Source of the DNA: Candidatus Latescibacterota bacterium
Lineage (GTDB): Bacteria > Latescibacterota > UBA2968 > UBA8231
Assembly: GCA_965248355.1 (NCBI GenBank)
Contig: OZ252098.1
Location: forward strand, 2,144,001-2,208,000
Direction of reading: 5' to 3'
DNA: 64,000 nucleotides
Shown here in pieces: positions 8,042-53,516 of this stretch. Position 1 is the stretch's first letter. The number at the start of each line of letters is the position of its first letter. The notes beneath the pieces were generated by a model. It did no database searches. It saw nothing but the letters and a program-made list of their open reading frames with translations, and was not told where the DNA came from. The position numbers were made by a program, and so were the translations under genes.

Positions 8042-8117
8042 GCGCCCATAGCTCAGTTGGTAGAGCGGCTGACTCTTAATCAGTTGGTCCGGGGTTCGAG
8101 TCCCTGTGGGCGCACCA
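8042..8117 (+). tRNA. tRNA-Lys (anticodon CTT)
   Basis: 76 nt; acceptor GCGCCCA/TGGGCGC, D-arm AGCTCAGTTGGTAGAGC, anticodon arm CTGA-CTCTTAA-TCAG, GTTCGAGTC T-loop, encoded CCA. Confidence 0.98.
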
Positions 8118-8242: not shown

Positions 8243-10387
8243 TCACCCCCAGGCGAAGAGGAAGTTGCCGGTGTGCCCGGTGAAGTAGTCGATGGTCAGC
8301 CAGAGGCCGACGGTCAGCATCTGACCGGCGATCATCCCCAGGAACACCCCCTGAGTGCGGCGGTAGAGGTTGACGCCTCCATACCGGCAGACCATGACCT
8401 TGATGAGCCAGGCGACGAACACGCTGGTAATGGTGTAGGACATGAGGTCCACGGCCGCCACCGGGAAGCCGATCGGGTGGAGGGGCCACCAGAGCAGGCG
8501 GTGGCGAGCCCAGTACAGCAGGGCCATGATGCCGCCGCCGCCGAAGAGGAAGCCGATGCCCGGCCAGTAGAGACCGGCGGGCTCCAGATTGCGCACGGCG
8601 TTGTCGTAGGCTACCGCCGGCCCCGCCTTGAAGAACCAGGAATCGAGGTTGACGCCGCCGTAGCGGTAGGCGACGTGGAAGATCATCCAAAGCGAGCCCA
8701 GGGTCCCGATCATCAGGGCCAGGATGAGAGCCAGGAAGACCAGCCGCCGGCTGCGCGCATCCATGTCCTCGATCAGCTTGAGGGCGTTCGTGCAGGTCGC
8801 CATGGCAAAGGAGCGGACCTCGCTGGACCAGATGTAGGCCATGGACAGATTGAGCACGCCGGTGGGACCGACGAGAGATGAACCGAGACCCATGACGACG
8901 AAGTCGGGGGCGTTGACGGGTGTCCGCAGCGTCGCCAGCCCGGCTTCGGCGATGATCCGGGTGATGCCGATGAAGATCGCCATGGCCAGGACGATGAAGA
9001 AGAGGGAGACCCAAAGCGGTGTGCCCATGATCCACAGCCACAGGGTCATGACCGCGATCCCCCCGAGGGCGCCGATCACGGCGCCGCGGTAGGAGAGGAT
9101 CTCGTCCCGGTCGTCGACGAGGGGCGCCCGGCCCAGGGCTTTGAGCCAGACCGCCTTCAAGTGCTCGCGGGCGGTCCACAGCACCCCCGCCACCAGCACC
9201 AGCAGGGCGCCCAGCCCCTCGTAGCCGATCAGGGGTGCGTCGTACACGCCGTGGAAGTGCACCTGCTCCGATCTGACCCCGACGGTCGCCAGCACGCTCT
9301 TCTGGATCCTGCCGAGCAGGTAGAACACCCACACGCTGCCCGATATCCTCGTGTCGATGAGGTAGGAGAAGCCGGTCAGGGCGAAGTTGACCTTGCCGCC
9401 CAGGTACGGTATCGGCAGGTGTATGGAGACCATGGGAATGGAGGGGTCGTAGCTCGACATGGCCCTCAGGCTGCCGGCGATGAAGGGGATGGCCATGCCG
9501 ATCCACACGGACGGACGCCTGAAGAAGCCGTTCACCAGCCTGTTCTCGTCCTCGCCGCGGATCATGGCCAGACCGACCTGGGCGATCGGATAGCCCAGCC
9601 GCTCCCGCTCCATCCACTGGCGCCGCAGGATTACGGCGATCGAGATCATGCAGACGTACAGGGCCAGCAGGAAGACGGCCCACCACATCAACGGCTCGAC
9701 CCAGGCGCCGTAGGGGATGCTCTGGCCGGGCCGGGAGATGCCCTCGTAGAACAGGGCGTTCCCGGCGCCGTCGTCTACCAGGATATCATGCTCGGGGAAG
9801 TGGGGGAAGAGCTTCTCCCGCCACTGGTTCTCCGGAGAGGCGTAGTAGAAGATGGCGGTGAGGGAGGGCAGGATCAGCTCGGTCAGGCCCATGGTGCACA
9901 CGGCCGAGACCATGGCCAGCATGGCATAGACCATGATCAGCTCCGCCCGGTTGAGGGCCAGGCTGCGACCGGACCACGCCAGCGGCACGTTGCCGAGGGC
10001 GCAGAGCAGGGCGAAGGTGGAGAAGATCAGCCCGGGTGAATGCGCATCGACATCGCTCAGGGGCCAGTAGGCGTAGAGCCAGGCAGCCCCCAGGGCGATG
10101 GCGAAGGCGAGGGCCGCCCCCTTGCTGCGCGCGGCCAGCTTGAAGGCCAGGTTGAGGATCCCGATCAGCACGACGAAGAGGAAGATGGCCCCCGGGGTGC
10201 TGATGTCTGCAGCCAGGTAGGCGCCCTTGATGATCATGTTGCTGTAGGGAGCGCTGACGGCGAGGAAGAAGCTCAGGAAGCTCCCCACGCAGAACCCCCG
10301 CCACGTCAGGCGGTGGCGCGATTCGAGGAGGGGCTCGGAGCGCGACCTCAGGTGCTCGCGGTAGCTCGGGGCGATTTCCTTTTTCAC
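8243..10387 (-). CDS. Polytopic inner-membrane protein, DUF6785/DUF6784-like (putative transporter)
   Basis: 714 aa with many TM segments; motifs ELIMVYAML, ILRRQWMERERLGYPIAQV, RIIAEAG, WWPLHPIGF, RYGGVNLYRR. Confidence 0.75.
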   Translation of the reverse strand: MKKEIAPSYREHLRSRSEPLLESRHRLTWRGFCVGSFLSFFLAVSAPYSNMIIKGAYLAADISTPGAIFLFVVLIGILNLAFKLAARSKGAALAFAIALGAAWLYAYWPLSDVDAHSPGLIFSTFALLCALGNVPLAWSGRSLALNRAELIMVYAMLAMVSAVCTMGLTELILPSLTAIFYYASPENQWREKLFPHFPEHDILVDDGAGNALFYEGISRPGQSIPYGAWVEPLMWWAVFLLALYVCMISIAVILRRQWMERERLGYPIAQVGLAMIRGEDENRLVNGFFRRPSVWIGMAIPFIAGSLRAMSSYDPSIPMVSIHLPIPYLGGKVNFALTGFSYLIDTRISGSVWVFYLLGRIQKSVLATVGVRSEQVHFHGVYDAPLIGYEGLGALLVLVAGVLWTAREHLKAVWLKALGRAPLVDDRDEILSYRGAVIGALGGIAVMTLWLWIMGTPLWVSLFFIVLAMAIFIGITRIIAEAGLATLRTPVNAPDFVVMGLGSSLVGPTGVLNLSMAYIWSSEVRSFAMATCTNALKLIEDMDARSRRLVFLALILALMIGTLGSLWMIFHVAYRYGGVNLDSWFFKAGPAVAYDNAVRNLEPAGLYWPGIGFLFGGGGIMALLYWARHRLLWWPLHPIGFPVAAVDLMSYTITSVFVAWLIKVMVCRYGGVNLYRRTQGVFLGMIAGQMLTVGLWLTIDYFTGHTGNFLFAWG

Positions 10388-10570
10388 GCCAGGCGCTTCA
10401 GTGGGTGAGGGTGGAGACCGCTTTGCTGATCATCGCCAGCCGGCGCAGAACATGCCGACCAGCGCCATGCCGGCGCCGACGCCGAGCACCATGGCGTTGG
10501 CGCCGTTGTATTCGGACAGCTGCCCCCCGCGTAGATCAAATGGCCGGAGATCCCGGGAGCTGGCGGCGCC

Positions 10571-12280
10571 TCAGCTACCACCCTCCTGTTGTACCAGGGC
10601 TCTCAGGTTCTCTTCGTGGATCTTGACCTGGGGCTCGTACTGTTGCCGCAATTCGCCCAGGAACCGGAAGAAGGCCGCATCGCGCTTCCGCCGCAGGACC
10701 ATGGCCCGGGCTCGCGTCGCGACCTCGGCGAAGGGCTTCGGGCCGCCTCCGAGGGTCGACTCGACGACCCTGAACACGGAATGGTAACGGTCTTCTGACG
10801 CCGCACCGGGGATCACGACCTGGCGGGCCGGCACCTCCACTTCGATGGGACCCAGCAGGTCCCCCGGCGCGGCTCCCCGGGCGGCTTCGAACAGGGCCTC
10901 GTGCCCTTCTCTCTGATACCAATGGAGGTGGAATCTCCCGGTGTCTGGTATGGGCATGCGCCGCAGGGTGTGCTGCTGTGCCAGGACCCGCAGATCCTCA
11001 CCGCGCTCGATCCGGCCCCGGAGCGCGACCGCTTCTTCGCGTGTCGCGACCAGGATTTCGTCCAGCGTCAGGGCCTCCTGGGGGACGAAGCTCTGCGGAT
11101 TCCGGGCGTGGAAGCGCCGCGCCTCGGCCTCGTCCACCTGCACGTCGCCCGTCACCTTCTTCCTGATGACCGCCAGCAGGCGTTCCTGCTCTCTGGCCTG
11201 GCGCCAGGCGACCATCTCCTTCTCGCGGTCGATTCCGGCATTGTGAGCGGCCTGCATGGCCAGCGCGCGGGGAACCAGGACCCACTCCCCAAACCACCGC
11301 ACCTGCTCTCGCACATCTCCCGAGAACTCCCGGTAGTTCTCCCGGGACGAGTCGACGAACTCTCCCACCGTGATGGTGCCGCCGTCGAACTCGTAGAGTA
11401 CCGTGCCGCGCTCCACCTCGGAGAACGTGTGTCCCCCGCTCTCCAGACGCGCGGCGAGAAACTCGAAACCGTCTACTCGGGGCCGCACGTCCAGAGCGCC
11501 CCGCAGTTCCCGGCCAAGCTCCATGGACCGGAAGCCGGCCTTCTCCCGGTGGAGCTCGGCCTCCACCACACTCCGCACCCGTTCGAGGGGAACAGGAACC
11601 TCGTCCATGACCTTGAAAACGCCGTAGGTGCCGTCCGGCAGGGGTATGGGTTCGGTGATCTGACCCTTCTCGAGGGGGAAGACCTTTTCCTGCATGACGG
11701 CCAGGGGCATCTGGTCCCTGGTGGCGGACCCCGCGTAGCGGCCGCCCTGTTCCGCCGTCGGACGGTGGGTCGAGCGCTGCCGCGCCAACTCCCCGAAATC
11801 GGCGCCGCTCTCCAACAGGCGCACGATCTCCTCGGCCTCTTCCCTGCTCTCGACCACGATCTTGCCCGCCTTGACCGCGCGGTTCCGTCCGGTCTTCAGG
11901 TAGTGGTCGTGGATTTCCTGATCTTCGAGCGTGATCTTCGCGTCCACTTCCCGGGCCAGGAACTCCTTCACCAGCCGTTCGGTCCATTCGCGGTCCAGCT
12001 TGCGGCGCATGGCGGGGTCGCGGTCCCATCCCCGCGCTGCCGCTTCCTGAATGAGGATCTCCTTGTCGATCAGGGCCTGCAGATGCTGCCGTCGGCCTTC
12101 GATGCCCGCCTCCTTGGACCTCAGGCTTTCGGCCAGGCGCTCCTCGTAGCGGCGCAGCTGCGCCGCGTGAATGCGGGTCTCTCCCACCTCGGCCAGCACC
12201 GGGCCATGCGAGTCTCCCCCACAACCCGACAGGACCGCCCCCAGAGCCAGGACCAGCACCGATGTGGCAGGTCCCGTCAC
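10571..12280 (-). CDS. Parvulin/PpiC-type peptidyl-prolyl isomerase lipoprotein (two PPIase-like domains)
   Basis: Lipobox LSGC; IVVESREEAEEIVRLLESGADFGELARQRS and ILVATREEAVALRGRIERGEDLRVLAQQHT; SurA-like N-domain (LQALIDKEILIQEA). Confidence 0.85.
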   Translation of the reverse strand: MTGPATSVLVLALGAVLSGCGGDSHGPVLAEVGETRIHAAQLRRYEERLAESLRSKEAGIEGRRQHLQALIDKEILIQEAAARGWDRDPAMRRKLDREWTERLVKEFLAREVDAKITLEDQEIHDHYLKTGRNRAVKAGKIVVESREEAEEIVRLLESGADFGELARQRSTHRPTAEQGGRYAGSATRDQMPLAVMQEKVFPLEKGQITEPIPLPDGTYGVFKVMDEVPVPLERVRSVVEAELHREKAGFRSMELGRELRGALDVRPRVDGFEFLAARLESGGHTFSEVERGTVLYEFDGGTITVGEFVDSSRENYREFSGDVREQVRWFGEWVLVPRALAMQAAHNAGIDREKEMVAWRQAREQERLLAVIRKKVTGDVQVDEAEARRFHARNPQSFVPQEALTLDEILVATREEAVALRGRIERGEDLRVLAQQHTLRRMPIPDTGRFHLHWYQREGHEALFEAARGAAPGDLLGPIEVEVPARQVVIPGAASEDRYHSVFRVVESTLGGGPKPFAEVATRARAMVLRRKRDAAFFRFLGELRQQYEPQVKIHEENLRALVQQEGGS

Positions 12281-15183
12281 TCTCTCAATCCGGCGTATAC
12301 GGTGAGATAGGACAGGCCGCTGGTCTCCGACCGGTCTTTGTGGGCGAAGGTGTCGATCTTCCGCCTGTCCACACGAATCCCCATCGTGGCCATCAGCCGG
12401 TATCCCAGGTAACTGCTCGCATTGGCCAGCTGCAGGGCGAGGGACAGCTCATGGAAGTCCCCGGTGGGATCTCCCGGATTCAGGCCGGCTGCGGGGTCGT
12501 CATCGAAGGCCACCTCCCGCTGGGCGAAGTCGCGGAAGATGACCTGCTCCAGGCCGACGATCACCATGCTGTGTCTCAACACCGGGATGTCCAGCCGCAG
12601 GGAGGCCATGCCGGCCCACTCCTTGCGCTCGAAGACCCGGTCGTTCAGGAGCCACTCGGTGTTGAAGGGCGTATCGTCCAGGAACAGCTCCTGCTTGACG
12701 CGCGGACGGAGTTGGATTCCGTTGCCCAGAGGATAGAGCCAACCCAGTTTGTTGATCAAACCGAGCCGCCGGGTGTGCTTCGAGATCTTCCGGCCCTTCC
12801 GGTCCACGGTGAGCTTCTCCCGCTGCCGCAGCACCTCGTGGATCAGCTTGTTCTCGGAGTTGATGCCGGCATTGCCCAGGCGCTCGAAGGCCAGCGACAG
12901 CTTGTTGACCCAGGTATCCGGCAGGCCCAGCGGATCCGGGACCGGGGTCATGCCCGCGTCCCTGAACCTTCCGTGCAGCCATTGGAAGAGGTCGTCCGCG
13001 ATATCGTCCTCGACCCGCTTCAACATGTTGAAGACAGCCAGCTCTCCCACGCCGGGATAGCTGCGCTCGAAGGCGAAAAGGGCATAGCTGCTCACGTTGG
13101 TCTCGCCGGTCGAGGGACGGCGCACCCGCTGGTGGCCCGCGGTGACCTTGGCGCCCGGCATGATCCACGCACCGCCGTACACGTTGTATCCGCGGCGGTC
13201 ACGCTTGTAGGGGTAGTCGGGTTCGTCATCGTTCTCGAAACGGTCCCCCCAGCCGTTGTTGTTCATGTCGATGCCGAAGAGGTACTCGGGCCGGTCCACG
13301 CTGTAGCGCAGGAAGGGCTCGGCGTAATCGGGCACACTGTTGGGCCGCACCCGGGTGTTGTTCTGGTTGAAGTCGGAGATGAAATCGTTGTTCTCGTCGA
13401 GGCCGGGAAAGACCGCCTCGTCCCCGTACCCCTCGAACCCGCGCAGGATGCCGGTGCCCCGTTCCTCTTGTGTCCGGCCGTCGTCGAATATGCGCTGCTG
13501 GTCGTTCTTGCGGTCGTTGTCGTCGTTGTCGTCGACGAAGTCGTAGAGGTAGCGGGCATTGGCCAGAGGCGTGTCCGCGTAGTTGACCCGGCCCGCCGAG
13601 TCCAGGAACCGCATGGTGGTCGAGTATTCGGCGTCCATGCCGAAGGCCTCGCCGAAGAGGTAGTACGGATGGAAGTCCCTGGCCACGTTGACCATCCACC
13701 CTGCGGCGGAGGGATTTCCCCGAAGGCCCGATGAGGTGGTGTGAGTGGTCCGGCTCACGTCGGGGTACTTGCGGTACTGGTGGTTCACGTTGAACTCGCC
13801 GTAGAGCCTGAACCCGGCCAGATCGTCGGCCTCCACCGTAAAGCCGAGGACCTGGGTGGCGGTGGGCAGTCCGTAGTCAAAGACCACGGCGCCCAGGTTG
13901 GAATGGTCCTTCACATTCCCCGGCGCCCGCGCCATGGTCCTGAAGACCGGGCGCGGTTCGTAGAGGGCGTTGTCGGTCTCCTGGTCGGAAGTGACTTCGA
14001 CCTTGTAGTCGTTGCTCAGGACCATCCGGAACCGGACCTTCCTGATGTTGTTGATCACATCGGCCAGGGGCACCACCGTTTCCAGATCGTCGCGGACCTC
14101 CGGGTCCAAGTCGGCCAGCACGTAGTCCAGTCGGATCCGCGCCAGTTCGCCGTCCCCTTCGGCTACCAGGAAGCCATCCCGAGGGACGCCTCCCGAAACC
14201 CTCGGATAGAAGCCGATCCGGCTGCCCACCAGCACCGTGTCCAGCTCTCCTACCCGGGTCGTGATCTCGATCTCGTGGGCGAAGAGGACGGGACTTCCCT
14301 CGCCGTCTTCCGGGGAATCGTCGGTAATCCGCACGGTGATCCGGTTGATGCGCGCCCCCGCCTGGTGGGAGCTCAGCCTTCCGGTGTATGGACTCCCGTC
14401 GAAGGGCCGGGTCGAGCTCCGCGCGTTGTGGGCGTTCACGAAGGTTCCGCCGAGGCGCGCGAAGTCGGCCACGTTCCAGACGGCCCGGAGACCGACGAGA
14501 GTGGTGAATTCGTCGATGAAACTGGACGTTGGCTCGACCAGCGGGACATTGATTCTGGACATGAGGGCAGTGGCCGAGCCGTGATCCGACATGTAGTCGA
14601 ACTGGACCCCGTTGAAGGCCGTCTTCCGAAGGGTCATGGGCGTCAGGGTCGTGCTGATCTCGTCGCCGATGCTCACCCGGAAGTGGTGCTGCCCCTTGGC
14701 GTCCGAAGAAACCACGAGGGAGCCGAGAAGGTCCTTGTACTGTTCGGTCTTGTGGAGCAGGTTCCCCTCGGAGGTCCGGGGCCGGCTCTGCTGCCAGTCG
14801 TAGATCAGCCAGCCTCGGGTCAGGAGCCTGCCGTAGAGATCGTAGTGATAGTCGCCCTCCTGATCGGTGGCCCGGTAAGGCCAGTAGCGCTCGAGGGCAT
14901 AGTTGGTCCCCTCCTCCCAGCGCCAGCGGTAGCGGTTGGCGGCCTCCTGGGGCAGGTACCATTTCCTGAGGGATGGAACGAAGGCGTCCGGACGCAGGCT
15001 GGGAGCCGCCGGGTAGTAGATCGCCCGGCCGCTCTCGCGGATGCCCAGGAGATTCCCGTAGCCCGACTGGGGCGCGCCGGGATCGACGCCCAACGTCACC
15101 GCGAGCCCGACGAGGATGAGGATTCGGGACCGGCCTGCGGGCCCCCCGGGCCGCACGGTGCGCGCTTCGGAGGGCTCGACCAT
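12277..15183 (-). CDS. Large uncharacterised secreted / putative outer-membrane protein A (~968 aa)
   Basis: ATG overlaps upstream stop (TGATG); hydrophobic signal region; D/N-rich motifs; C-terminal amphipathic strands ending LTVYAGLRE; paralog of 15183..17999. Confidence 0.8.
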   Translation of the reverse strand: MVEPSEARTVRPGGPAGRSRILILVGLAVTLGVDPGAPQSGYGNLLGIRESGRAIYYPAAPSLRPDAFVPSLRKWYLPQEAANRYRWRWEEGTNYALERYWPYRATDQEGDYHYDLYGRLLTRGWLIYDWQQSRPRTSEGNLLHKTEQYKDLLGSLVVSSDAKGQHHFRVSIGDEISTTLTPMTLRKTAFNGVQFDYMSDHGSATALMSRINVPLVEPTSSFIDEFTTLVGLRAVWNVADFARLGGTFVNAHNARSSTRPFDGSPYTGRLSSHQAGARINRITVRITDDSPEDGEGSPVLFAHEIEITTRVGELDTVLVGSRIGFYPRVSGGVPRDGFLVAEGDGELARIRLDYVLADLDPEVRDDLETVVPLADVINNIRKVRFRMVLSNDYKVEVTSDQETDNALYEPRPVFRTMARAPGNVKDHSNLGAVVFDYGLPTATQVLGFTVEADDLAGFRLYGEFNVNHQYRKYPDVSRTTHTTSSGLRGNPSAAGWMVNVARDFHPYYLFGEAFGMDAEYSTTMRFLDSAGRVNYADTPLANARYLYDFVDDNDDNDRKNDQQRIFDDGRTQEERGTGILRGFEGYGDEAVFPGLDENNDFISDFNQNNTRVRPNSVPDYAEPFLRYSVDRPEYLFGIDMNNNGWGDRFENDDEPDYPYKRDRRGYNVYGGAWIMPGAKVTAGHQRVRRPSTGETNVSSYALFAFERSYPGVGELAVFNMLKRVEDDIADDLFQWLHGRFRDAGMTPVPDPLGLPDTWVNKLSLAFERLGNAGINSENKLIHEVLRQREKLTVDRKGRKISKHTRRLGLINKLGWLYPLGNGIQLRPRVKQELFLDDTPFNTEWLLNDRVFERKEWAGMASLRLDIPVLRHSMVIVGLEQVIFRDFAQREVAFDDDPAAGLNPGDPTGDFHELSLALQLANASSYLGYRLMATMGIRVDRRKIDTFAHKDRSETSGLSYLTVYAGLRE

Positions 15184-17999
15184 CACAGTCCGGCATATAC
15201 GGTTATGAAGGTGGTGCTCAATTCGCGGCCCCGGTCTTCCTTCACCGACTCTCCCAGGCCACCGGCGGTGACGAACTCGTCCCAGACCCGGGTGTACATG
15301 ATGCCGAACCGGGTGGTCAGGACGTAGCCCTGGTATTCCCCGACGTTGGACCACTGGGCGGCCAGCACCAGGCTGCGGGAGTCACCCGTGGCCCCCACCC
15401 GGTTGGCGGCGAGGGCCTCCTTCTCGTCCAGCATCAGATCCGCAACCCGGTGGTATTCCAGCCCGGCCTCGAGAGAGGACGCGCTCAACATGGGATGCCG
15501 CAGCAGCAGGATGCCTGTTCCCGTCCACTCCTGGCGCTCGTCGCCGCCCAGGATGAACGGCGTCTGGTTCAGGTACTCGCTCTTGATCCTGGGTTGGACC
15601 TCCAGTCCGCCGACGCGGCAGGTGTAATCCGCTTTGTTGATGAGCCCGAAGAAGTGGGTGCGATCCTCGAGTATGGGACCGACGCCCCGCTCGTAGGCAT
15701 CTCCCTGCTGAGCATACAGGTCGTACTTGATCTTGGTAATCGTCTTCAGCTCGCCCACCGGGCGATAATTCAGCTCCAGGAAGGTCGAGTTCACCCAGGT
15801 GTCGCGGGCCGGGAGCAGGTCCTCGATGTTGGCCAGGTTGCCGGTGGCGAGACCGAGGTAAGGAGTCATCTCCCGGCGGTCGTCGGGTATGGTGTCCCGG
15901 GTCCGCTTGAGCATGTCGTAGACCCGGACCACGCCGAACCGGGGATCGTCGTGGGTGAAGGTGATCAGCCCGTAGGTCGTGTGGTTCTTGCGATCGGAAG
16001 ACAAGGAGCTGACCCCCAGGCGCCCCAGGGCGGCCCTGATGTCGGGCCTCACGAAAGCGCCGCCGTACACATTGTACCCCCGCCGGTCCTTCTTGTAGGG
16101 GTAGTCGGCCAGATCGTCGTTCTCGAAGCGGTCCACCCAGTTGTTGTTGTTCAGGTCGATGCCGAAGAGGAACTCGGGCCGGTCCGAATGGTAGCGGAAG
16201 AAGGGCTCCTCGTAGTCGGGGATGCGATTCGGCAGAATGGCGCTGTCGTTCTGATTGAAGTCCGACACGAAGTCGTTGTTCTCGTCCCATCCCGGGAACA
16301 CGTTGGCATCACCGGAGCCGTGCTCAAACCGGGCCCAGTCGGAAAACCGGTCCTGGTCGTCATTGTCCTCGACGAACTCGTAGAGGTGCCGGCCCGAATG
16401 GTCGTAGAGGATGTCCCCCTGGCTGTCTACGAGGTACGCCGTGGTGGAGTAGTCGGGGTCCATGCTGAAGGCCTCTCCGAAGGCGAAGAACGGATAGGCC
16501 ACCTTCGACAAATTGACGATCAACGCCTCTGCCTCTCTGGAATAGCTGGACAGAGCGCGGTCTGCCTGGGCCAGGGTGGGGTTGGGGAACTGGTGATAGG
16601 ACCGGCTGATGGCCAGTTCGGCGTAGGCATCAAGACCGATCACATCCTTGACGTCCATGGTGACTCCATAAACCATGTTCGCCGTGGGCAAGCCGTATTC
16701 GAAGACGAGGCGGGTCTGGTTGGAGTTGTCCGACACATTGCCCTCGGCCCGGGCCACCTCGAAGAGCGCCGGCGCGAGCTCGTCGATATCTTCGCCGCTG
16801 AGCGGCAGGTTGGGCATGGGGCGCAATCCGGTCTGCCGGTCGGACCATACCTGGATGCGGTAATCGTTGGCCACCACCAGCTCGAAGGTGATCTTCGTGA
16901 TGGTGTTCGGACGCGGCCCGGTGTAGGAGATGTCGTTGAGGTCGTAACTGATTACGATCTTCTCGTCCCCGTCCGCGCTCTGGAAGCCCTCGTGGTGGAA
17001 TCCGCCGCTGACCACGGGCCACTTGGCCGGATCGGTGACCATCGCCCGCTGGCGGATCTCCTCCCGCCTCCCGGTGGCCGGATCCTCCGTGGTCATGATG
17101 ATCTCGTGCGAGAACAGGGCCGCGCCGGCCACGCCGTCCTCCGGTGAATCGTCGCTCAGAACAAGGGCCAGGCCGCGCACCGGGACCGCCCCCTGGTTGG
17201 CAGCCAGCGTGCCTTTGAGCGGGTTCCGCTCGAAGGCGTCCTCGAAGGTCCGGGAGTTGTGGGCGTTGACCAGAGTCGCCCCCACTTCCACGAAGTCCCC
17301 AACCTCGGCGACGACCCGCCCCCCCATCAGGTTGGTGCCATTGGTCACCGTCACGGGCGCGTTCCTGGGCGTGGTACCTGCCACCGCAAGGCTGACCCGG
17401 GAGAACAGCAGCGTGCCCCGGTACTTGTCCGAGGCGAAGTCCATCTGTATGCCGTTGAAGTTGGGCTTGGAGAAGGTGAGCGGCGTCAACGCCGTTCTGA
17501 TCTGATTCCCCGCCGTTATGGCATAGTGAAACTGGCCCCTGGAGTCCGAGCTCACCAGGACGTTGTTGAACCAGTTGGCGAACCTGGGATCCTTGTAGAG
17601 CGAGGAACCGAACTGCCCGGGCTGGTTCTGGTTCCAGTCGTAGACCAGCCACCCCCGGGTCAGGTAGTTGCCGTAGAGATCGTAGAAGGGGTCGCCCTCG
17701 CGGTCGGTGCCTACGTACCGCTGGTACTGTTCGCGGGCATAGTTGGAGTACTCCCACTGCTGCCAGCCGTACAGCTCGTAAAGCTCCTGTGGCACGTACC
17801 ACTTCTTGAGGGCCGGATCGAGGGCGTCGAAGATGACCCCGGGTCCCCTGGGTTCATAGGTTATCTCCCCCCCTCGCCGCTCTCCGAGACGCCGGACGGA
17901 GGACTGACCCCACACATGGGATACCTGAAGTGTGGCGATGAGCAGGAACACGCTCAGCACTCCCCCCGCCTTGCCGGTCGTCGACATCAAGGCCCTCAT
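15183..17999 (-). CDS. Large uncharacterised secreted / putative outer-membrane protein B (938 aa)
   Basis: Signal peptide (VLSVFLLIATLQVSHVWG-Q); shares KWY.PQE, YDLYG..LTRGWL.YDW, LTP.T..K..FNG.Q.D, DDSPEDG, FPG.DENNDF.SDFNQN with protein A; ends ITVYAGL. Confidence 0.85.
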   Translation of the reverse strand: MRALMSTTGKAGGVLSVFLLIATLQVSHVWGQSSVRRLGERRGGEITYEPRGPGVIFDALDPALKKWYVPQELYELYGWQQWEYSNYAREQYQRYVGTDREGDPFYDLYGNYLTRGWLVYDWNQNQPGQFGSSLYKDPRFANWFNNVLVSSDSRGQFHYAITAGNQIRTALTPLTFSKPNFNGIQMDFASDKYRGTLLFSRVSLAVAGTTPRNAPVTVTNGTNLMGGRVVAEVGDFVEVGATLVNAHNSRTFEDAFERNPLKGTLAANQGAVPVRGLALVLSDDSPEDGVAGAALFSHEIIMTTEDPATGRREEIRQRAMVTDPAKWPVVSGGFHHEGFQSADGDEKIVISYDLNDISYTGPRPNTITKITFELVVANDYRIQVWSDRQTGLRPMPNLPLSGEDIDELAPALFEVARAEGNVSDNSNQTRLVFEYGLPTANMVYGVTMDVKDVIGLDAYAELAISRSYHQFPNPTLAQADRALSSYSREAEALIVNLSKVAYPFFAFGEAFSMDPDYSTTAYLVDSQGDILYDHSGRHLYEFVEDNDDQDRFSDWARFEHGSGDANVFPGWDENNDFVSDFNQNDSAILPNRIPDYEEPFFRYHSDRPEFLFGIDLNNNNWVDRFENDDLADYPYKKDRRGYNVYGGAFVRPDIRAALGRLGVSSLSSDRKNHTTYGLITFTHDDPRFGVVRVYDMLKRTRDTIPDDRREMTPYLGLATGNLANIEDLLPARDTWVNSTFLELNYRPVGELKTITKIKYDLYAQQGDAYERGVGPILEDRTHFFGLINKADYTCRVGGLEVQPRIKSEYLNQTPFILGGDERQEWTGTGILLLRHPMLSASSLEAGLEYHRVADLMLDEKEALAANRVGATGDSRSLVLAAQWSNVGEYQGYVLTTRFGIMYTRVWDEFVTAGGLGESVKEDRGRELSTTFITVYAGL

Positions 18000-20183: not shown

Positions 20184-20200
20184 TCGATGGCCTCCTGGTG

Positions 20201-22726
20201 TCAATACGCTACGTGGACCACGCGGTGCGCCTTGCGGCTCGATACGTCCGCGTCCGAATCCACCTCGATCTCCAACAGGTAGGCCCCGGGAGGCACCAGC
20301 CGGCCGCTCTGGTCGTCGCCGGACCAGCGGACCGTGTAGGATCCGCTCACGTGGGGACGCCGCTCCTCCCACTCCCTCACCAGGCCGCCGCCCAGATCGT
20401 AGAGGCGGGTCTTCACCGCGCGCTGCCCGGTGAGCCGGAAGACCGAGAACTCGAACCGCGCTTCGTCGTTGATCCCATCCCCGTTCGGGGTCAGGATCGG
20501 AGCGCTGATCGTCAACGGGCCCATCACCCGCCTGTCTTCCAACGGCCCTCGCAACAGCATCCCCTGACTCGAGGCCAGGGCGGTCGCATCGCCGGGATCC
20601 ACCCGTTGCCACCGGTCGGCCTCGGAGGAATTTCCCAGTTCCGCCTGCAGGATGGCGCCGGGGCGGAACAGGGTCGTGGTGAACCGCACTTCGATCAGGT
20701 CGACGTCGGGGCCCACCGCCGAATCCAGGCGCACCCACAGCGAGTCCGATCCGGCCGGGACCTGCTCCAGATCGGAGGGTCCCAGCTCGGCCACCGGGCC
20801 GGCTTCCCACTGCGACTCCCGGGCCATGCGGAGAAGCTGAAAATCCAGGTCCACCCCGGGAGCGTACAGGCGAATCTGGTCCATTCCGGGGCCGCTCCGC
20901 AGGAACTCGGCCTTGACGAACAGGGACAGGGTGTCGATGGCACCCAACCCGGATACCAGGGCCGGCTCGAGCTCGCCCCGGACCTGCCGGGCCAGGGGAT
21001 CGAGAAAGTTCAGCCGAATCGACCGCAGGGAGGCCGCCTGGTGCGGATCGTCCGTCATCAGCCAGGCCTGGAGCATCAGGTACGACCGCGGGCTCGGCGA
21101 GGTGACGGGGGCCCCCGAGACCGCGTATCCCTCGCTCCAGTCGCTCCAGTCACCCCCCGGCACCTGCTCGGCCACGATGTCGATCTCCTTCTTGGCGAAT
21201 TTGTTCAGCTTGTCGTAGGCCTCTTCGGTTATCTCGGTGCCATCGTCCTTGAAGTAGCGGAGGACATCCGCGAGTTGGTTGCCGGTCCGGCTGCGCAGCG
21301 AGATGGAGGTCCCGGGGGGCGTCTCTCCCTCCCACTCGATCGAGTTCAGCGTCCGGGCGCCGCCCAGCGTGATCAGGGGGGACGTGAGTGAAACGCGAGG
21401 CTGGTATCCCTCGCCGTAGAACTGCATCTCCCGCGTGTCCGCGTTGCCTCCCGCCATGCCGCCGGAATAGGGAATGCTGATGTAGCGGGCGACCGTCGGT
21501 TCGAACACGTTGACGTGGTAATCCATGCCGCCGTCGCCCCCGAGCGCCTGGCTGGTCCAGGCCAGTCTTCCCTCGGGCGTCAGGGTGCCGTCCGAGGTCT
21601 GGATTTCGTACTTGGTGATGGGTCCCTCGTAACCCTTGTTCTGGAAGAGCATCTGCACTCGATCCACCCAGAAGAAGGCGCCCAGGTCGAAGAAGAAGAA
21701 GCGCTGGGCGGGCTTGACGACGGTGGTCACGACCGTCGTTTCATACAGGCCGTCCACCAGGCTGGTGACCGCGGTGGTATCCGTCTCTATCTTCTGCGCC
21801 ACCCCCCGGCGGGCCGTCAACCCCAGGGCGATGTTCTCGCCTATCGTCCGCACTTCCATCCCGGCCAGACGGGGACGCTCGCGGCGGAAGTACCGGACCT
21901 CGCCACGCGATCCCGCGTCGATCGCCTCGTAGATCTCCGGCTCGACCCGGATGCTCCCATCGGCCACCCTCTTGTAGTAGTCCACCGCCCCCCGGCGGCC
22001 CGGCTCCAGGGCGTCGTAGACCTCGCGGGACACCTCGGCGCCTCGCACCGAGTCGCTTTCCGTCACCACGAGCTGGACGTACCGGATCTCGTCCCCCCGC
22101 CACTCGGGATCGCGGACGTCTCCCGACGGTTTCAGCTCGACGTCGAAGAGGCGTCGGCTCTTGTTCGCGCCCGGACTCGCGTAGGCGACGATGTAGCTCT
22201 TGACGTCCTTCAGGCCCTGCTCGGGACGCTCGCCGTCCGAGGTCAGAAGGGTATACTGGAGAAAGGGATCCCCGAGATCCTCGTTCACGAAGGTCAGGAG
22301 GATCCTGGTGGCGGACACGACCCGCCCCAGATCCAGCTCGAACCACCAGTCGCGCAGTGGCTGGTCCGGGTCGGGCTGCCAGTACGAGGTCAGGTCCCCG
22401 TCAAGGAGGTTGGCTACCGCGGCCGCATTGGTGCCGGCAGTCACCGCGTTCATGAAGTCGACGTCTTCAGCCTCGACTCCTCTGGGCGGGTGCCGTCTCA
22501 GGTGCTCGACAATGTCCCGGGTCGCGTCGATATCCCTGGCCACAAAGTGCGGTCGAACCGTGTGCGCCGGGGCCAAGAACTCCACCGTGCCGGCCGGGAA
22601 ATTCCAGGCTTCCAGGTGGCGGCCCTCTACCACGATCTGGTTGCCGCGGATGACATACCCCTGGCCCCAGACCGCACTGCCACACAGGACCCAGAGAGCC
22701 AGCGCCGAGCTGATCCTGCCGTTCAT
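20201..22726 (-). CDS. Secreted protein with two discoidin-like domains and C-terminal FlgD-Ig-like domain
   Basis: GGAGG RBS, ATG 22726, signal peptide; LLDGDLTSYW..WFELDLG and LVDG..FFFDLG; LTPNGDGIND...WSGDDQSGRLVPPGAY...VHVAY*. Confidence 0.8.
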   Translation of the reverse strand: MNGRISSALALWVLCGSAVWGQGYVIRGNQIVVEGRHLEAWNFPAGTVEFLAPAHTVRPHFVARDIDATRDIVEHLRRHPPRGVEAEDVDFMNAVTAGTNAAAVANLLDGDLTSYWQPDPDQPLRDWWFELDLGRVVSATRILLTFVNEDLGDPFLQYTLLTSDGERPEQGLKDVKSYIVAYASPGANKSRRLFDVELKPSGDVRDPEWRGDEIRYVQLVVTESDSVRGAEVSREVYDALEPGRRGAVDYYKRVADGSIRVEPEIYEAIDAGSRGEVRYFRRERPRLAGMEVRTIGENIALGLTARRGVAQKIETDTTAVTSLVDGLYETTVVTTVVKPAQRFFFFDLGAFFWVDRVQMLFQNKGYEGPITKYEIQTSDGTLTPEGRLAWTSQALGGDGGMDYHVNVFEPTVARYISIPYSGGMAGGNADTREMQFYGEGYQPRVSLTSPLITLGGARTLNSIEWEGETPPGTSISLRSRTGNQLADVLRYFKDDGTEITEEAYDKLNKFAKKEIDIVAEQVPGGDWSDWSEGYAVSGAPVTSPSPRSYLMLQAWLMTDDPHQAASLRSIRLNFLDPLARQVRGELEPALVSGLGAIDTLSLFVKAEFLRSGPGMDQIRLYAPGVDLDFQLLRMARESQWEAGPVAELGPSDLEQVPAGSDSLWVRLDSAVGPDVDLIEVRFTTTLFRPGAILQAELGNSSEADRWQRVDPGDATALASSQGMLLRGPLEDRRVMGPLTISAPILTPNGDGINDEARFEFSVFRLTGQRAVKTRLYDLGGGLVREWEERRPHVSGSYTVRWSGDDQSGRLVPPGAYLLEIEVDSDADVSSRKAHRVVHVAY

Positions 22727-22770
22727 GTTGCCGCACCTCCCTGTGCCGGCCCACGGCCGACAGGCCCGCC

Positions 22771-24735
22771 TCAATACGCCACCGCGATCAGGCGGGTTCC
22801 GCTGTCGCGGCCCCCTTCGCGATCGACCGCGACCCGGCATACGTAGAGCCCCGGCGGCACCAGCCGGCCGCCGCTGTCCCGCCCGTCCCAGGGCTGGATG
22901 TACCGACCCGAACGGTCCCGGCCCACATACACCTCCCGCACCCGCCGGCCCGACAGATCCCACACCCCCACCTCCACCCGCCGGTCCTCGGTCAACTTCA
23001 GCAGGTCGTACCGGATCGCCACCGCGTCGTTGATCCCGTCCCCGTTGGGCGTAAACGCAGCCGGCTCGACCTCCAGCCCCCCCACAATCGACGCTCCCAG
23101 CGACAGCGTCTCCACCGACAGACGGTTGCCGTCCAGCGAGTTGGTCGCATCGCCTTCCCGCACCGGTTGCCAGACCTCCGCCGGCGCCTGGCTGTCGAAG
23201 ACGCGGCCCTGGAAGGTCGCCGCATAACGATACACCTCGCCCCGCAGCCGAACCTGCAGCAACTCACCGCTCTCGTTCACTCCCAGCCGCGGAAAACTCA
23301 CCACCACCCGGTCCTCGGTGCGCAGGCTGTCCGCCTCCGTGAACGCTACCTCCGCTCCCTCCACCTCGACCCCGACCACCTCCGCCACCCGGCCCCCCTG
23401 GAAGCGCAACTCCAGGCTGTCGAATCCCCGATCCCGCAGCGACAAGGTGGGCCGCACCGCATAGGTGAAGTCGGTCAACTCCGAAGCCTCGGCCTGCCAC
23501 GGATCCACCTCCCCCACCAGATCCGTCGCCGCCGGCGGCGACGATACCGCGAATTCCAGGAGATTCACCTGCCCCCCGTCCAGAAAATCACTGGCGAAGT
23601 CAATCGAGAACTGCACGTAGCTGCGGGGCCGCGGCGCCACCATCGGCACCCCCAGACTGTCGTCGAACGAATACGGCGCCGACCACAGGTCCCAGTTGGC
23701 CGCGTCGTGGGTGATGCTGCCTTTCTCCTTCTCCTTCAGCTTGTCATACCGCGCCCGGGTCAGGGGCGATCCGTCCGGCCCATACGGCACCTCCTCGTCG
23801 GCCCGGAAGGTCCGCCGCCAGTACCGGGACGGATCCGGATCGTCGCCGCCATGGCTGCGGATCGATACCCGGGCCGACTCGTCCTGGCGGCCCGACCAGC
23901 GCACCCGGCCCAGACTGGAGGGGGCGCCCAGCGGAATGGTGTTCGAGGTATAGCCGGCGAACGGCACATACCCCTCGGCGAAGACCTCCATCTCCGCGAT
24001 CTCCCACGCCTGCCGCTGAAACGGGTCGACCCACAGGGCCAGCTGTCGCACCGGCGTCCGGTCGAGGGGGATCTCCACCACCGGGCTCTTGTTCTCCGTG
24101 ATCTCCGCCACCAGATCGAATTCGAGTCCCGTGCGGACGAGCTTGCGCTGGAATTCCAGGTGAGACCGGTTCGGCGTTCCCCCGTGGGGTTCGCCACGGC
24201 CGGTGGCGATGGCCATGTGCTCGATGTAGTGCGGGGAGCCGGGACGCGGGGACACCCGCACCCGGTTCACCGGGAACAGGCCGCCCAGGTCGAAGTACAG
24301 GGTGAAGCCGGTGATACCGCCGCCCGGACTGTAATCCGACAGCGACGCATTGTGCTCCAGGAAGAAGGTGGTGAAGTCCCCATCCGCGACCACGTCCAGG
24401 GCCGGATCGTGGCCATAGCCCGAATAGCGCTCGGTCCTCAGGAAGCCGCCCCGCTCCCCCACCGTGGCCAGGATGCTCTCGTCGCTGCCGTAGTAGTAGG
24501 GCGCCAGCGCTCCATCCAGGTTCACGCTGTCGAAGTCGCCGGCCCCGGCGGGATCGACGTCGGTCCACCTCAGCTGCTCGAACCCGGCGCGGCCGTCCGC
24601 CACCTCGAGCGGCAGGGGAAAGCGCGCGTAGTCCTCGCCGCCCAGCCGATAGATCGTCAGCGCGTCTGCGGGGAGCAACATCCCCGGGCTCGCCGCCAGG
24701 CACAAGATCAGGCCTGCCAATCGCGGTTTTGCCAA
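22771..24735 (-). CDS. Secreted protein with discoidin-like domain and C-terminal FlgD-Ig-like domain
   Basis: Probable TTG start 24735 giving a signal peptide (KPRLAGLILCLAA...ADA); VADGDFTTFF..LYFDLG..WEIAEMEVF; FTPNGDGIND...WDGRDSGGRLVPPGLY...IAVAY*. Confidence 0.8.
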   Translation of the reverse strand: MAKPRLAGLILCLAASPGMLLPADALTIYRLGGEDYARFPLPLEVADGRAGFEQLRWTDVDPAGAGDFDSVNLDGALAPYYYGSDESILATVGERGGFLRTERYSGYGHDPALDVVADGDFTTFFLEHNASLSDYSPGGGITGFTLYFDLGGLFPVNRVRVSPRPGSPHYIEHMAIATGRGEPHGGTPNRSHLEFQRKLVRTGLEFDLVAEITENKSPVVEIPLDRTPVRQLALWVDPFQRQAWEIAEMEVFAEGYVPFAGYTSNTIPLGAPSSLGRVRWSGRQDESARVSIRSHGGDDPDPSRYWRRTFRADEEVPYGPDGSPLTRARYDKLKEKEKGSITHDAANWDLWSAPYSFDDSLGVPMVAPRPRSYVQFSIDFASDFLDGGQVNLLEFAVSSPPAATDLVGEVDPWQAEASELTDFTYAVRPTLSLRDRGFDSLELRFQGGRVAEVVGVEVEGAEVAFTEADSLRTEDRVVVSFPRLGVNESGELLQVRLRGEVYRYAATFQGRVFDSQAPAEVWQPVREGDATNSLDGNRLSVETLSLGASIVGGLEVEPAAFTPNGDGINDAVAIRYDLLKLTEDRRVEVGVWDLSGRRVREVYVGRDRSGRYIQPWDGRDSGGRLVPPGLYVCRVAVDREGGRDSGTRLIAVAY

Positions 24736-24791
24736 GATTTCACCCTGCTGTCGTGTGGGCCCCCCGCTGTGCACCAGGGGCTGATTCTCAG

Positions 24792-24825
24792 GGAAGGGGG
24801 GATGTGAGACCACATCCCCCCTTCC
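24792..24825. terminator. Perfect 15-bp stem-loop between the first and second genes of the locus
   Basis: GGAAGGGGGGATGTG-AGAC-CACATCCCCCCTTCC; no U-tract on the coding (minus) strand, so it may be a stabiliser or attenuator rather than a full terminator. Confidence 0.65.
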
Positions 24826-24874
24826 TTCGTGCCATGGAGCTTGGAGCGCCGGCAGCGAATCTGCTCGCCGTCAG

Positions 24875-25783
24875 CTACTGCGTGAACGCGGCCTTGACCC
24901 GGCCCCAGCTCTCGGCTTCGACGGCCGTGCCGAACTCGACATCCTCCACCGGAGCCAGCAGGAAGTCGGTGGATACCGACGAGGTTTGCCAGACGGTTGC
25001 CTCGCCATTCAGAATCCACTGATCTTTCGAGTTGTCCTCCGTATTGTCATAGTCGGTGATCTCCCAGTTCAGACCGATGATCTCACCTTCTACCATGTCG
25101 TGCACCACACTGCCGTCCGGGTCATCCCACTGCAGGTTGTCCCACAACGTGAGCATCCACTCCGCCTGGCCGGTGACGTCGGCGGCGTTGAGCTCGGCGG
25201 CATCCGACGAGTACCCATTGTCGGCCCACGGCAGTTCGCCGGTCCAGGTAGCCTGGGACTGCCAGTACCAGGCCCACGCCGTCGCCTCGTTGTTCACGTT
25301 CGGCGACCCAGGATCGATATCCGGGAGGCGGAAGTGGATATTCTGGGCGAAGCGCGAGCCGTCCTCCGGCGAATCGCCATTGAAGGAGTCTTCGCCGCCG
25401 TGGTCCCCGTCAACGTTCATCTCGAAGCTGTCGGGTAAGTTCGCTGCGGCATCGAGACCGGAGACGTCCCGCTTGCGGAAGTCGTCGAACACCTGGTGGT
25501 GCATATAGAGACGGTCGGTGCTGGCGCTGTAACCGACGATGACCTTGCTGTTCATACTCGACAGGTCCGTCCACTGCTCGCCGGCCGGGGACGCGTAGAA
25601 CTCCGGCCCGATCCAGTAGTCCTGGGGAACCACGGACCACTCGGACAGATCCCCGTCCAGGGTCGGCTCGGCACCCGCCGGGAACTGGAACGCGAGCAGA
25701 ACCTGCCCCTCTGGCACGTGACCCCAGGCGGAAGGGGCGAAGCCCATGGTCAGGCAGAGGGCGAAAATCACTTTCTTCACCAT
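24875..25783 (-). CDS. Secreted acidic protein, CBM9/DOMON-like, with C-terminal 'TAVEAESWGRVKA' motif
   Basis: GGAGA RBS, ATG 25783, signal peptide MVKKVIFALCLTMGFAPSAWG; PTLDGDLSEW, LYMHHQVFDD, GEIIGLNWEITDYD. Confidence 0.8.
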   Translation of the reverse strand: MVKKVIFALCLTMGFAPSAWGHVPEGQVLLAFQFPAGAEPTLDGDLSEWSVVPQDYWIGPEFYASPAGEQWTDLSSMNSKVIVGYSASTDRLYMHHQVFDDFRKRDVSGLDAAANLPDSFEMNVDGDHGGEDSFNGDSPEDGSRFAQNIHFRLPDIDPGSPNVNNEATAWAWYWQSQATWTGELPWADNGYSSDAAELNAADVTGQAEWMLTLWDNLQWDDPDGSVVHDMVEGEIIGLNWEITDYDNTEDNSKDQWILNGEATVWQTSSVSTDFLLAPVEDVEFGTAVEAESWGRVKAAFTQ

Positions 25784-25802
25784 TGAAGAATCTCCATGAT
25801 GC

Positions 25803-26112
25803 TGATTCCCCGACCCCAGGCTCTCTGGGACCGACGGAATCGGGTTGACTGGATGTGTGGGCGGCCGGTCAGACCGCCGGGTGTAGAGATCGCTGGGGGT
25901 CTCGCAGTCGAAGGCCTGGTGCGGGGCCGGTCCGGCGCCACCGGGCGGTAGTGGAAGCTCGAGCGGGGCAGCCCGAGCAACTGGCACTGACGTGTACGCT
26001 CAACTGGGGATGCTGCGGCTCGATGAGAGCCACCTTGGCCTTGAATTGAGCGGAGTGCGGCTAATGTATGCATGGCCTTGGGGCGGACCAAGAAAAAACG
26101 AGGCCGACCCCA
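25803..26112 (-). mobile_element. Internally deleted IS3-family relic (MITE-like)
   Basis: Minus strand carries in order HSAQFKAKVAL (OrfA start), IEPQHPQLSV/RQCQLLGLPRSSFHYRP (OrfB start) and PHQAFDCETPSDLY (OrfB end); degenerate inverted repeats at 25811-25833 and 26084-26106 (14/23 identical). Confidence 0.75.
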
Positions 26113-27652: not shown

Positions 27653-27774
27653 CGCGCAGTCTTCCGTTGAACCACGGGGTCTCACCGGGGCGCCGCGGCG
27701 GCTGCCCGCAGGGCCGTTTCGGAGGTCGCTGCAGAGCCCGCGGATTGGATGGCGCGCCCGGCGCCGATCTCCTG

Positions 27775-27802
27775 TAGTATAGGTCTGATAGTATAGGTCT
27801 GA
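27775..27802. repeat. Perfect tandem 14-bp direct repeat in a divergent intergenic region
   Basis: TAGTATAGGTCTGA twice (27775-27788, 27789-27802). Confidence 0.9.
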
Positions 27803-27859
27803 GCGCCCGCGCCGGGCCTGGCTCAACCGGAACCAGCGAACCCGGGGACCTGAAGCGGC

Positions 27860-44609: not shown

Positions 44610-44624
44610 TGGCACGGAATTTGT
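44610..44624 (+). promoter_or_regulatory. sigma54 (-24/-12) promoter
   Basis: TGGCAC-GGAAT-TTGT (consensus TGGCAC-N5-TTGC) ahead of an operon that encodes its own sigma54 activator. Confidence 0.7.
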
Positions 44625-44638
44625 GTAAGGAGCCTCCC

Positions 44639-45916: not shown

Positions 45917-45927
45917 AGGAGGCAGCC

Positions 45928-46593: not shown

Positions 46594-46600
46594 GGACAGC

Positions 46601-49157: not shown

Positions 49158-49176
49158 GAGAACTGCAAAGGAGAGA

Positions 49177-49674: not shown

Positions 49675-49711
49675 CCATGGTCACCGACAACTCCGCAAAC
49701 GGGAGGCACCC

Positions 49712-52121: not shown

Positions 52122-52125
<4 letters not shown>
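50956..52125 (+). CDS. MacB/FtsX-type ABC permease
   Basis: MIRHLCKIVWNRKRSN, EEIGLRRALG, YPGRLACRIRPAEALHSE. Confidence 0.92.

Positions 52126-53512
<1,387 letters not shown>

Positions 53513-53516
<4 letters not shown>

Follow-up and report, generated by a model that had tools for sequence, protein, structure and literature searches.

Many diverged SusC/SusD loci occur per genome in Bacteroidota, where they combine surface glycan-binding proteins and a large outer membrane (OM) protein with degradative enzymes and importers. The Latescibacterota are widespread, uncultured bacteria that are thought to degrade polymers. Here we describe a locus of eight genes at positions 8243 to 25783 of a 64-kb stretch (the window) of the 5.50-Mb, single-contig, 69% G+C genome of a Candidatus Latescibacterota bacterium. 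The locus is one of 13 copies in this genome of a module that recurs across species around a core of one lectin-like protein gene (L3) and two paralogous genes (A and B). Two described systems are close enough to frame it: in Bacteroidota, accounts such as PMC9143113 and PMC12618676 have cargo whose C-terminal domain (CTD) is of type B held by cognate PorP/SprF OM barrels (SprB-SprF and PG1035-PorP-PorE), and SlpA is described in PMC9388160 as a homotrimer of 30-stranded barrels. We propose, with confidence and doubt about evenly balanced, that the eight genes represent a single copy of a modular surface lectin display unit that depends on a type IX secretion system (T9SS), in which lectin-like proteins are held on cognate giant barrels and serve glycan capture.

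The locus and its conserved core

Eight long open reading frames (ORFs) occupy positions 8243 to 25783, all on the minus strand, and a gene caller based on G+C content at third codon positions (GC3) gave the same set as the ORF listing, in agreement with the preliminary description of this DNA. They code for W, a 302-aa secreted CBM9-like protein (24875 to 25783) with the tail TAVEAESWGRVKAAFTQ; three lectin-like secreted proteins, L1 (22771 to 24813, start uncertain), L2 (20201 to 22726/22774), and L3 (18000 to 20183/20204), the last directly upstream of A; A (938 aa, 15183 to 17999) and B (968 aa, 12277 to 15183/15186), which belong to an unnamed family of putative giant OM beta-barrels; PPI, a PrsA/SurA-like parvulin lipoprotein with a C-terminal extension of ∼320 aa (10571 to 12280); and a polytopic inner membrane protein with DUF6785 and DUF6784 domains, a putative importer (8243 to 10387) that we refer to as DUF6785. 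The junctions described previously are matched exactly: there are 44 nt from the L1 stop to the L2 ATG at 22726 and 17 nt from the L2 stop to the L3 GTG at 20183, the L3 TGA abuts the A ATG (gap of 0 nt), and A and B overlap by TGATG and B and PPI by GTGA. The looser gaps, at least 61 nt between W and L1 and 183 nt between PPI and DUF6785, each contain a strong hairpin. A tRNA-Lys gene (8042 to 8117, plus strand) and housekeeping genes form the downstream boundary. Seven products have export signals, as had been reported, with signal-like N-terminal hydrophobic segments in W, L1, L2, L3, A, and B and the lipobox LSGC in PPI; there are no further hydrophobic segments in A, B, W, or PPI and 11 in DUF6785. 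Parvulin is likewise the sole function-naming domain that Pfam and NCBIfam return for these proteins, so that the PPIase is the only product with a recognizable function.

The same gene families are found repeatedly in this genome. Searches with phmmer, using the eight window proteins against gene calls across the whole genome, identify 13 module loci, 29 A/B-family gene calls (25 full-length genes plus two genes each in two pieces), and 29 L-family, 26 DUF6785, 6 PPI, and 8 close W genes, with 28 of the 29 L-family genes sharing a locus with an A-family gene. Seven of the 13 loci are window-like, having one or two of the putative barrels, several L genes, and W, with PPI in six; the other six have one L gene followed by three tandem A-family paralogs. 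One of the two genes in pieces, an A-family gene at 2469301 to 2473369 (locus L025; labels of this form denote genomic loci, and L1, L2, and L3 the lectin-like proteins) is interrupted by a Mutator-family transposase gene (Transposase_mut, 5.1e-36).

Recurrence extends well beyond this genome. When each GTDB species was scanned through one genome, at least 677 A-family relatives emerged, and the best 80 loci were annotated by six-frame translation and hidden Markov models of the families from our own genome, with ORFs sub-typed against the window's own proteins; 61 of the 80 loci have full 10-kb flanks. The module arrangement is seen in all 80, a recurrence far beyond chance, and the earlier proposal of a conserved, apparently unpublished envelope module is upheld by these and the 13 loci of the genome itself. 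Every one of the 61 full-flank loci has an L gene (58 have at least three), 60 have at least two A-family genes, 55 have W, 52 have PPI, and 26 have a DUF6785 gene within 10 kb, and the recurrence of gene order and A-B pairing that the preliminary description had raised is thus observed across genomes and loci. There are 77 cases of an A-type ORF with a module-family ORF before it in the same orientation, and in 74 of them the ORF immediately before is of the L3 type; B comes directly after A in 68 cases, and PPI intervenes in 9. The invariant core is L3-A-B, around which W, L1, L2, PPI, and DUF6785 are found in at least six recurrent arrangements.

The eight-gene unit originally delineated is therefore right in part. 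Its exact order is retained in the closest orthologous loci (L051 to L053, 88 to 91% identity), but it is larger than the conserved L3-A-B core and omits a conserved gene directly upstream of W. This gene (26117 to 27652, minus strand) codes for a 511-aa lipoprotein with an LGAC lipobox and TPR Pfam matches, its start at ATG 27652 (MHSYAVPV) being fixed by the GC3 profile. Searches with tblastn find it upstream of W in orthologous loci, at 69 to 81% identity in L051 to L055 and L072 and 42 to 44% in L059 to L069, and it too is among the parts that shuffle around the core.

The A family was found in 70 of the 121 genomes sampled from the phylum, including 40 of 40 in the window's own taxonomic family, and was found in 0 of 29 and 0 of 13 sampled genomes of two sister taxonomic families. 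Relatives of the window proteins come from metagenome-assembled genomes (MAGs) labelled mostly Candidatus Latescibacterota, with some Gemmatimonadota/Gemmatimonadetes. Clustering at 50% identity divides the family into 711 clusters within a set of 1.84 billion representatives, and the 120 of 832 matches listed are all 'hypothetical' where named and have no Pfam domain. W and A are concordant in presence or absence in 12 of 14 taxonomic families, a comparison that is descriptive only because kin are not independent.

Lectin-like proteins, secretion genes, and the A and B family

The L proteins are paralogous to one another, with 29% identity between L1 and L3 (E of 8e-44) and 25% between L2 and L3 (E of 3e-22). 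L2 has two discoidin/CBM32-like domains (F5_F8_type_C, 39.9 bits), and two regions of the L2-type profile weakly match carbohydrate-binding CBM32 modules and a sialidase's galactose-binding domain (7e-4 to 1e-2); the designation 'lectin-like' is drawn from such similarities. Every L profile has matches to the Ig-like domains of FlgD and to the C-terminal domain of PorU, with FlgD_ig scores of 34 bits for L3 and 25.0 bits for L1 (cut-off 27), and CHU_C scores of 25.2, 17.4, and 20.3 bits for L1, L2, and L3, all below the cut-off of 27. The three proteins share one CTD subtype, characterized by PNGDGxND and a terminal VAY. PNGDGxND has 22 matches in the proteome, each of them in an L-family protein and 89 to 105 aa from a V[AVS]Y C terminus, and the same C-terminal ending is present in 190 of the 212 L ORFs in the 80 other-species loci. 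The tail is best read as a family-specific CTD subtype with a type-B-like start and a FlgD-Ig/type-A-like body.

Type IX secretion genes are located elsewhere in the genome. These include SprA at 427 to 432 kb (605.8 bits summed, cut-off 200), and two PorU genes (556.9 and 543.8 bits, cut-off 420), one of which has a PorV-like gene next to it; ∼48 further sub-threshold matches to the C-terminal region of the PorU model mark other CTD-bearing ORFs. The second PorU gene is back to back with a DUF6785 gene (1930330 to 1935477). PorP/SprF was not found in this genome, in which TIGR03519 gives a single 16.8-bit match, to the PorV-like gene. Because the L proteins carry T9SS-type CTDs and SprA, the two PorU genes, and the PorV-like gene lie elsewhere, the module is not self-contained, contrary to what the preliminary description had supposed. 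With no part of the T9SS machinery in the locus, display of the L proteins probably depends on that encoded elsewhere.

A and B share 37% identity across 954 aligned positions, belong to no Pfam or NCBIfam family, and have a signal peptide and neither lipobox, CTD, nor transmembrane (TM) segment; A-family profiles have no meaningful match, and no SlpA match, among PDB sequences. In a FastTree phylogeny of 49 sequences, A-type (first-position) and B-type (second-position) proteins group apart from each other, in two clades that both have 100% local support, and the three-barrel loci fall into three clades by position. The B-type clade holds the orthologs from the 11 other loci with a second copy in the tree, the second copy of locus L035, which is in two pieces, having been dropped. 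Separate positional clades with orthologs from all of the loci compared show that the A/B duplication is old and the order fixed.

Several features, the signal peptide without lipobox, CTD, or TM segment among them, are consistent with A and B being giant OM beta-barrels, an assignment that is putative. Weak matches to SlpA_C, the beta-barrel domain of SlpA, in 17 of 49 diverse A-family members point the same way, although all are below the cut-off. Among 72 diverse members, 27 columns within A-family residues 540 to 640 are at least 90% D/E/N and may form acidic, calcium-type loops. Mean-field direct coupling analysis (DCA; 424 sequences, Neff 195, 867 columns, reduced alphabet) gives 95 antiparallel versus 41 parallel stripes at the top threshold, with hairpin-like stripes in residues ∼690 to 930 and no visible barrel closure. 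The nearest named protein-language-model cluster of A is DUF6029, a TonB-receptor-like beta-barrel family (0.89), which we take as a lead only, and the DUF6029, DUF5916, and PorP models match no A-family gene in the genome. In hhalign comparisons, which proved to be without power, the A family had probabilities of ∼1% or less against TonB-dependent transporters (TBDT), DUF5916, L, W, PPI, and DUF6785, as did the positive control of TBDT against DUF5916. The dedicated PrsA/SurA-like foldase gene counts as indirect support, and hetero-oligomers would account for the fixed A-family pairs and triplets. The preliminary description had set the locus apart from TonB/SusCD, type V secretion (T5SS), and canonical T9SS gene sets, and A and B match no such family model tried: neither has a TonB plug or TonB_dep_Rec match, the genome's 22 PF00593 matches all lie away from A-family loci, and the eight proteins have no Pfam or NCBIfam match to T5SS/two-partner POTRA, ShlB-type, or autotransporter domains.

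We envisage display proceeding as follows. The discoidin/CBM32-type binding proteins L1, L2, and L3 would be Sec-exported and then moved over the outer membrane, via their special CTD, by the T9SS encoded elsewhere. A and B would hold them at the surface, A having L3 for its constant partner, much as type-B CTD cargo is held on cognate PorP/SprF barrels in Bacteroidota, a family not found here. A and B would form a fixed hetero-pair that the PrsA-like lipoprotein helps to fold or insert, or for which it acts as a periplasmic partner, and the accessory parts would be the TPR lipoprotein and the CBM9-like W, which has a C-terminal tag of its own. The 13 diverged copies, often beside DUF6785 permease, PcRGLX-like, GDSL, DUF4838, and FGE-sulfatase genes, could then constitute a repertoire of glycan-capturing units functionally comparable to polysaccharide utilization loci.

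Several observations weigh against this display model. The CTD class is ambiguous, because TIGR04131, the type-B sorting domain, is matched by 26 of 28 L tails (last 110 residues only) at 13.3 to 31.1 bits (20.3 for the L1 CTD), below the cut-off of 35, and the type-A sorting model is also matched by 19 of the 28, one of them at the cut-off. The secretion gene set has weak members, in that the PorV-like gene scores 157.8 bits against a cut-off of 250, GldK is represented in this genome by sub-threshold FGE-domain matches only (best 85.5 versus 350 bits), and GldM had no match in eight genomes, in a search whose control matched nowhere. Sugar binding by the L proteins and W is deduced from weak domain similarity. 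Similarity of the A family to SlpA_C (PF21620) is local, spanning ∼156 to 325 of 656 profile positions, and 0 of 151 genomes of the phylum have a match above the cut-off. Finally, ExbB, with or without ExbD, is encoded within ∼8 genes of three of the five three-barrel sister loci, and together with the TonB-C-like protein near such loci this fits energized transport better than a passive anchor.

The SlpA_C matches bear on a different role for A and B, as SlpA/OmpM-like barrel oligomers that stabilize the outer membrane, with the L proteins forming a protective or adhesive coat (S-layer-like or for host attachment) that is not nutritional. The matches do recur: 17 of 49 diverse A-family members have one (E of ≤0.05, best 30.2 bits versus a cut-off of 35), 16 of these 17 in a single profile region (∼196 to 330), and sub-cut-off matches to the same region are found in 50 of the 151 genomes. 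SlpA is homotrimeric, and fixed paralog pairs and triplets would suit hetero-oligomers; the high copy number is also in keeping with a structural element. However, the similarity is both local and sub-cut-off, and unrelated ORFs of ∼380 to 420 aa in genomes that lack the A family have it as well. A and B have no Pfam match to an SLH domain or a coiled-coil stalk, and thirteen diverged loci with diversified lectin domains fit a variety of substrates better than a single coat, and we consider a purely structural role quite improbable.

The ExbB/ExbD genes bear instead on an uptake machine, in which A and B are a large SusC- or porin-like OM substrate channel fed with oligosaccharides by the L proteins and W, DUF6785 is the importer, and enzymes of the U628 type process the products. 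DUF6785 (361.9 bits, cut-off 25, and DUF6784 88.2 bits, cut-off 26.4) is enriched near the module, occurring within 15 kb of 7 of the 13 loci in this genome versus 1.9 expected by random placement (P of 0.0008), and it occupies the same position in L051 to L053. U628, a cytoplasmic 628-aa protein of no known family, is encoded further upstream in the window (28800 to 30686, minus strand), and in another clade (L036, L037, and L059 to L069) its orthologs, at 50% identity, come immediately after PPI, which is the position of DUF6785 in the window. Degradative and binding-protein genes are frequent neighbors, and SlpA/OmpM-type proteins are often annotated as porins, as PMC9388160 has it. Set against these points, A and B lack a plug, a TonB box, and any TonB_dep_Rec signal, there are no motor genes within the 64-kb window, DUF6785 is missing from over half of the loci, and the strict L3-A adjacency and family-specific CTD favor a protein-protein partnership. 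Uptake is compatible with surface display and is a strong, non-exclusive rival to it, although as an account of the module we think it unlikely.

DUF6785 itself is not the fixed member that the preliminary description took it to be. It is present in fewer than half of the full-flank loci noted above, and in a group of loci at 60 to 62% identity an unrelated cytoplasmic protein replaces it after PPI; it is an enriched but optional neighbor of the module. OPT/Yellow-Stripe transporters are likewise polytopic membrane proteins of ∼650 to 715 aa with degradative genes alongside, but sequence comparison gives no support for kinship: the DUF6785 family profile has no PDB sequence match, and the OPT Pfam model matches no DUF6785 gene in this genome.

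Accessory proteins, neighbors, and intergenic hairpins

W itself has no Pfam or NCBIfam match, and its CBM9-like character comes from relatives: CBM9_1 is matched by three of the eight W paralogs (best 8.9e-7), and the family profile matches the CBM9 of xylanase 10A (PDB 1i82) at 5.5e-5. The tail of W (24875 to 24925) contains the motif TAVxxxSWGxIK, which is kept in 7 of the 8 paralogs and in 58 of 66 W ORFs of the other loci. Across the proteome (1.68 million residues) there are 36 matches to the shorter pattern WG.[IVLM]K, 33 of them within the last 25 residues of a protein, and the 32 credible carriers make up 12 unrelated small secreted families, 25 of the 32 having an N-terminal hydrophobic segment. 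Given this C-terminal clustering across unrelated families, the tail looks like an undescribed sorting or attachment tag. PPI matches Rotamase at 46.6 bits (cut-off 21.7) and SurA_N_3 at 20.2 bits (cut-off 27.2), and residues ∼100 to 250 match PrsA structures at 3.8e-9.

U628 has neither signal peptide nor TM segment and no Pfam, NCBIfam, or PDB match, and three of its eight paralogs (located at 4195 to 4199 kb, 4209.8 kb, and elsewhere) are near DUF6785 genes. Between U628 and the TPR lipoprotein gene is a plus-strand ORF of 293 aa (27860 to 28741) with no PDB relative, antisense to the upstream part of a long minus-strand ORF (26117 to 28597); G+C content by codon position shows the plus frame to be the coding one there. 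Relatives at 85 to 89% identity (L034:2-3988, L035:16006-19998, L054, L055, and L072) encode a ∼1330-aa FtsX-like giant protein after PPI, and six-frame translation gives an open frame of ∼1800 aa that also matches the DUF6785 model and may be a fusion.

The genes around the 13 loci in this genome include those for PcRGLX-like proteins, DUF4838, GDSL esterases, FGE-sulfatase, GlcNAc-2-epimerase-like proteins, CBM9, FG-GAP/ASPIC proteins, and many TPR proteins. The three-barrel sister loci (143 to 170, 498 to 514, 546 to 573, 1571 to 1593, and 1949 to 1974 kb; L011 to L024 and L046 to L050) have a type-A-CTD protein, one L protein, three tandem A-family paralogs in fixed order, a TPR protein of ∼1083 aa, and DUF4159, and one of them also has an AgmX/PglI-C (TonB-C-like) protein. 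Elsewhere in the window, at 44621 to 54808 (plus strand), is an ordinary-looking cluster with genes for an HlyD-like protein, an ABC ATPase, and four MacB/FtsX-type permeases, followed by a sigma-54 response regulator, a histidine kinase, and then a CarboxypepD_reg/DUF5686 OM-type protein.

Both of the looser gaps contain inverted repeats. Between W and L1 is a perfect, G/C-rich hairpin of 15 bp (24792 to 24825, minus strand), and the surrounding region (24780 to 24880, minus strand) folds at −50.6 kcal/mol (z of −4.38). A counterpart of this hairpin is present after W in 51 of 53 other loci (best 50-nt window at ≤−25 kcal/mol), versus 9 of 110 random segments from the same loci, and the post-W hairpins have compensatory sequence differences across loci. 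It is plausible that it acts as an intra-operon terminator, attenuator, or stabilizer, and it may set the W:L expression ratio. The L1 GTG start at 24813 falls within the hairpin, and the true L1 start is probably downstream of it, for example at TTG 24735. The PPI-DUF6785 gap has a 14-bp GC-rich inverted repeat (10471 to 10505). A promoter and terminator scan was no richer than shuffled sequence (3 versus 1.9 promoter-like and 11 versus 8.7 terminator-like sites); one terminator-like site (26115 to 26096) is 3′ of the TPR lipoprotein gene.

Metatranscriptome contigs from two studies, at 95 to 99% identity, cover 18 to 29 of 30 locus bins and span the B/PPI and L2/L3 junctions, and we note that as support for cotranscription these are weak, because a contig is no proof of a single transcript and RNA libraries may contain contaminating DNA. 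The W region (24729 to 25982) is nearly without RNA contig coverage in four runs, which is uninformative because the contigs derive from a relative at 95 to 99% identity.

Comparison with described systems

Our literature search found no paper describing this module, DUF6785, or type IX secretion in Latescibacterota/Latescibacteria, and neither 'lectin' nor 'discoidin' occurs in the text of the 2015 Latescibacteria genome paper. The module makes up a large share of the envelope genes, with 13 loci in 5.5 Mb and totals of ∼25 intact giant paralogs, 29 genes for lectin-like proteins, and 26 for DUF6785, and its main proteins are all nameless. Were the display model correct, the T9SS logic of cargo plus cognate anchor would extend outside the Bacteroidota, with a different and much larger partner, and there would be a second solution to surface glycan capture besides SusCD. 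There would also be two candidate sorting signals to draw on when surface proteomes are predicted for FCB-group (Fibrobacteres-Chlorobi-Bacteroidetes) metagenomes.

A more far-reaching version is tentative and, taken as a whole, doubtful. It holds that previously unknown giant OM barrels with acidic loops replace PorP/SprF in Latescibacterota (with distant homologs in some Ignavibacteria- and Bacteroidota-labelled MAGs), as SlpA-like hetero-pairs or triplets that would each dock a cognate lectin through its CTD subtype. The WG tag would target the CBM9-like protein and a dozen other families to the same envelope system, and the whole could be a non-SusCD, T9SS-coupled analogue of polysaccharide utilization.

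SusC/SusD loci resemble the module in that many diverged loci combine binding proteins and a large putative OM protein with nearby enzymes and importers. They differ from it in that the module has no TonB-dependent receptor, plug, or SusD domain, its binding proteins are T9SS-type cargo rather than lipoproteins, and no hybrid two-component or extracytoplasmic function (ECF) regulator is seen in the locus. A and B are, like the SlpA/OmpM proteins of Deinococcus-Thermus, very large putative OM proteins with signal peptides, and they have a recurrent weak local match to SlpA_C. In contrast to SlpA/OmpM, however, the match covers only ∼100 to 130 of 656 profile positions at a sub-cut-off score, and A and B have neither an SLH domain nor a coiled coil.

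The PorP/SprF systems, to the extent that PMC9143113 and PMC12618676 describe them, share with the module a special-CTD cargo gene directly beside the gene for its own putative OM partner, a periplasm-facing accessory lipoprotein in the locus, several diverged cargo/partner pairs per genome, and a general T9SS encoded elsewhere. Unlike PorP/SprF, A and B are ∼930 to 970 aa, have no TIGR03519 match, and form a fixed hetero-pair, and unlike type-B cargo, the L proteins have a CTD that scores below the type-B cut-off and is half FlgD-Ig/type-A-like. In contrast to PG1035-PorP-PorE, the accessory protein is a parvulin foldase and not of the PorE type, and the lineage is Latescibacterota, not Bacteroidota.

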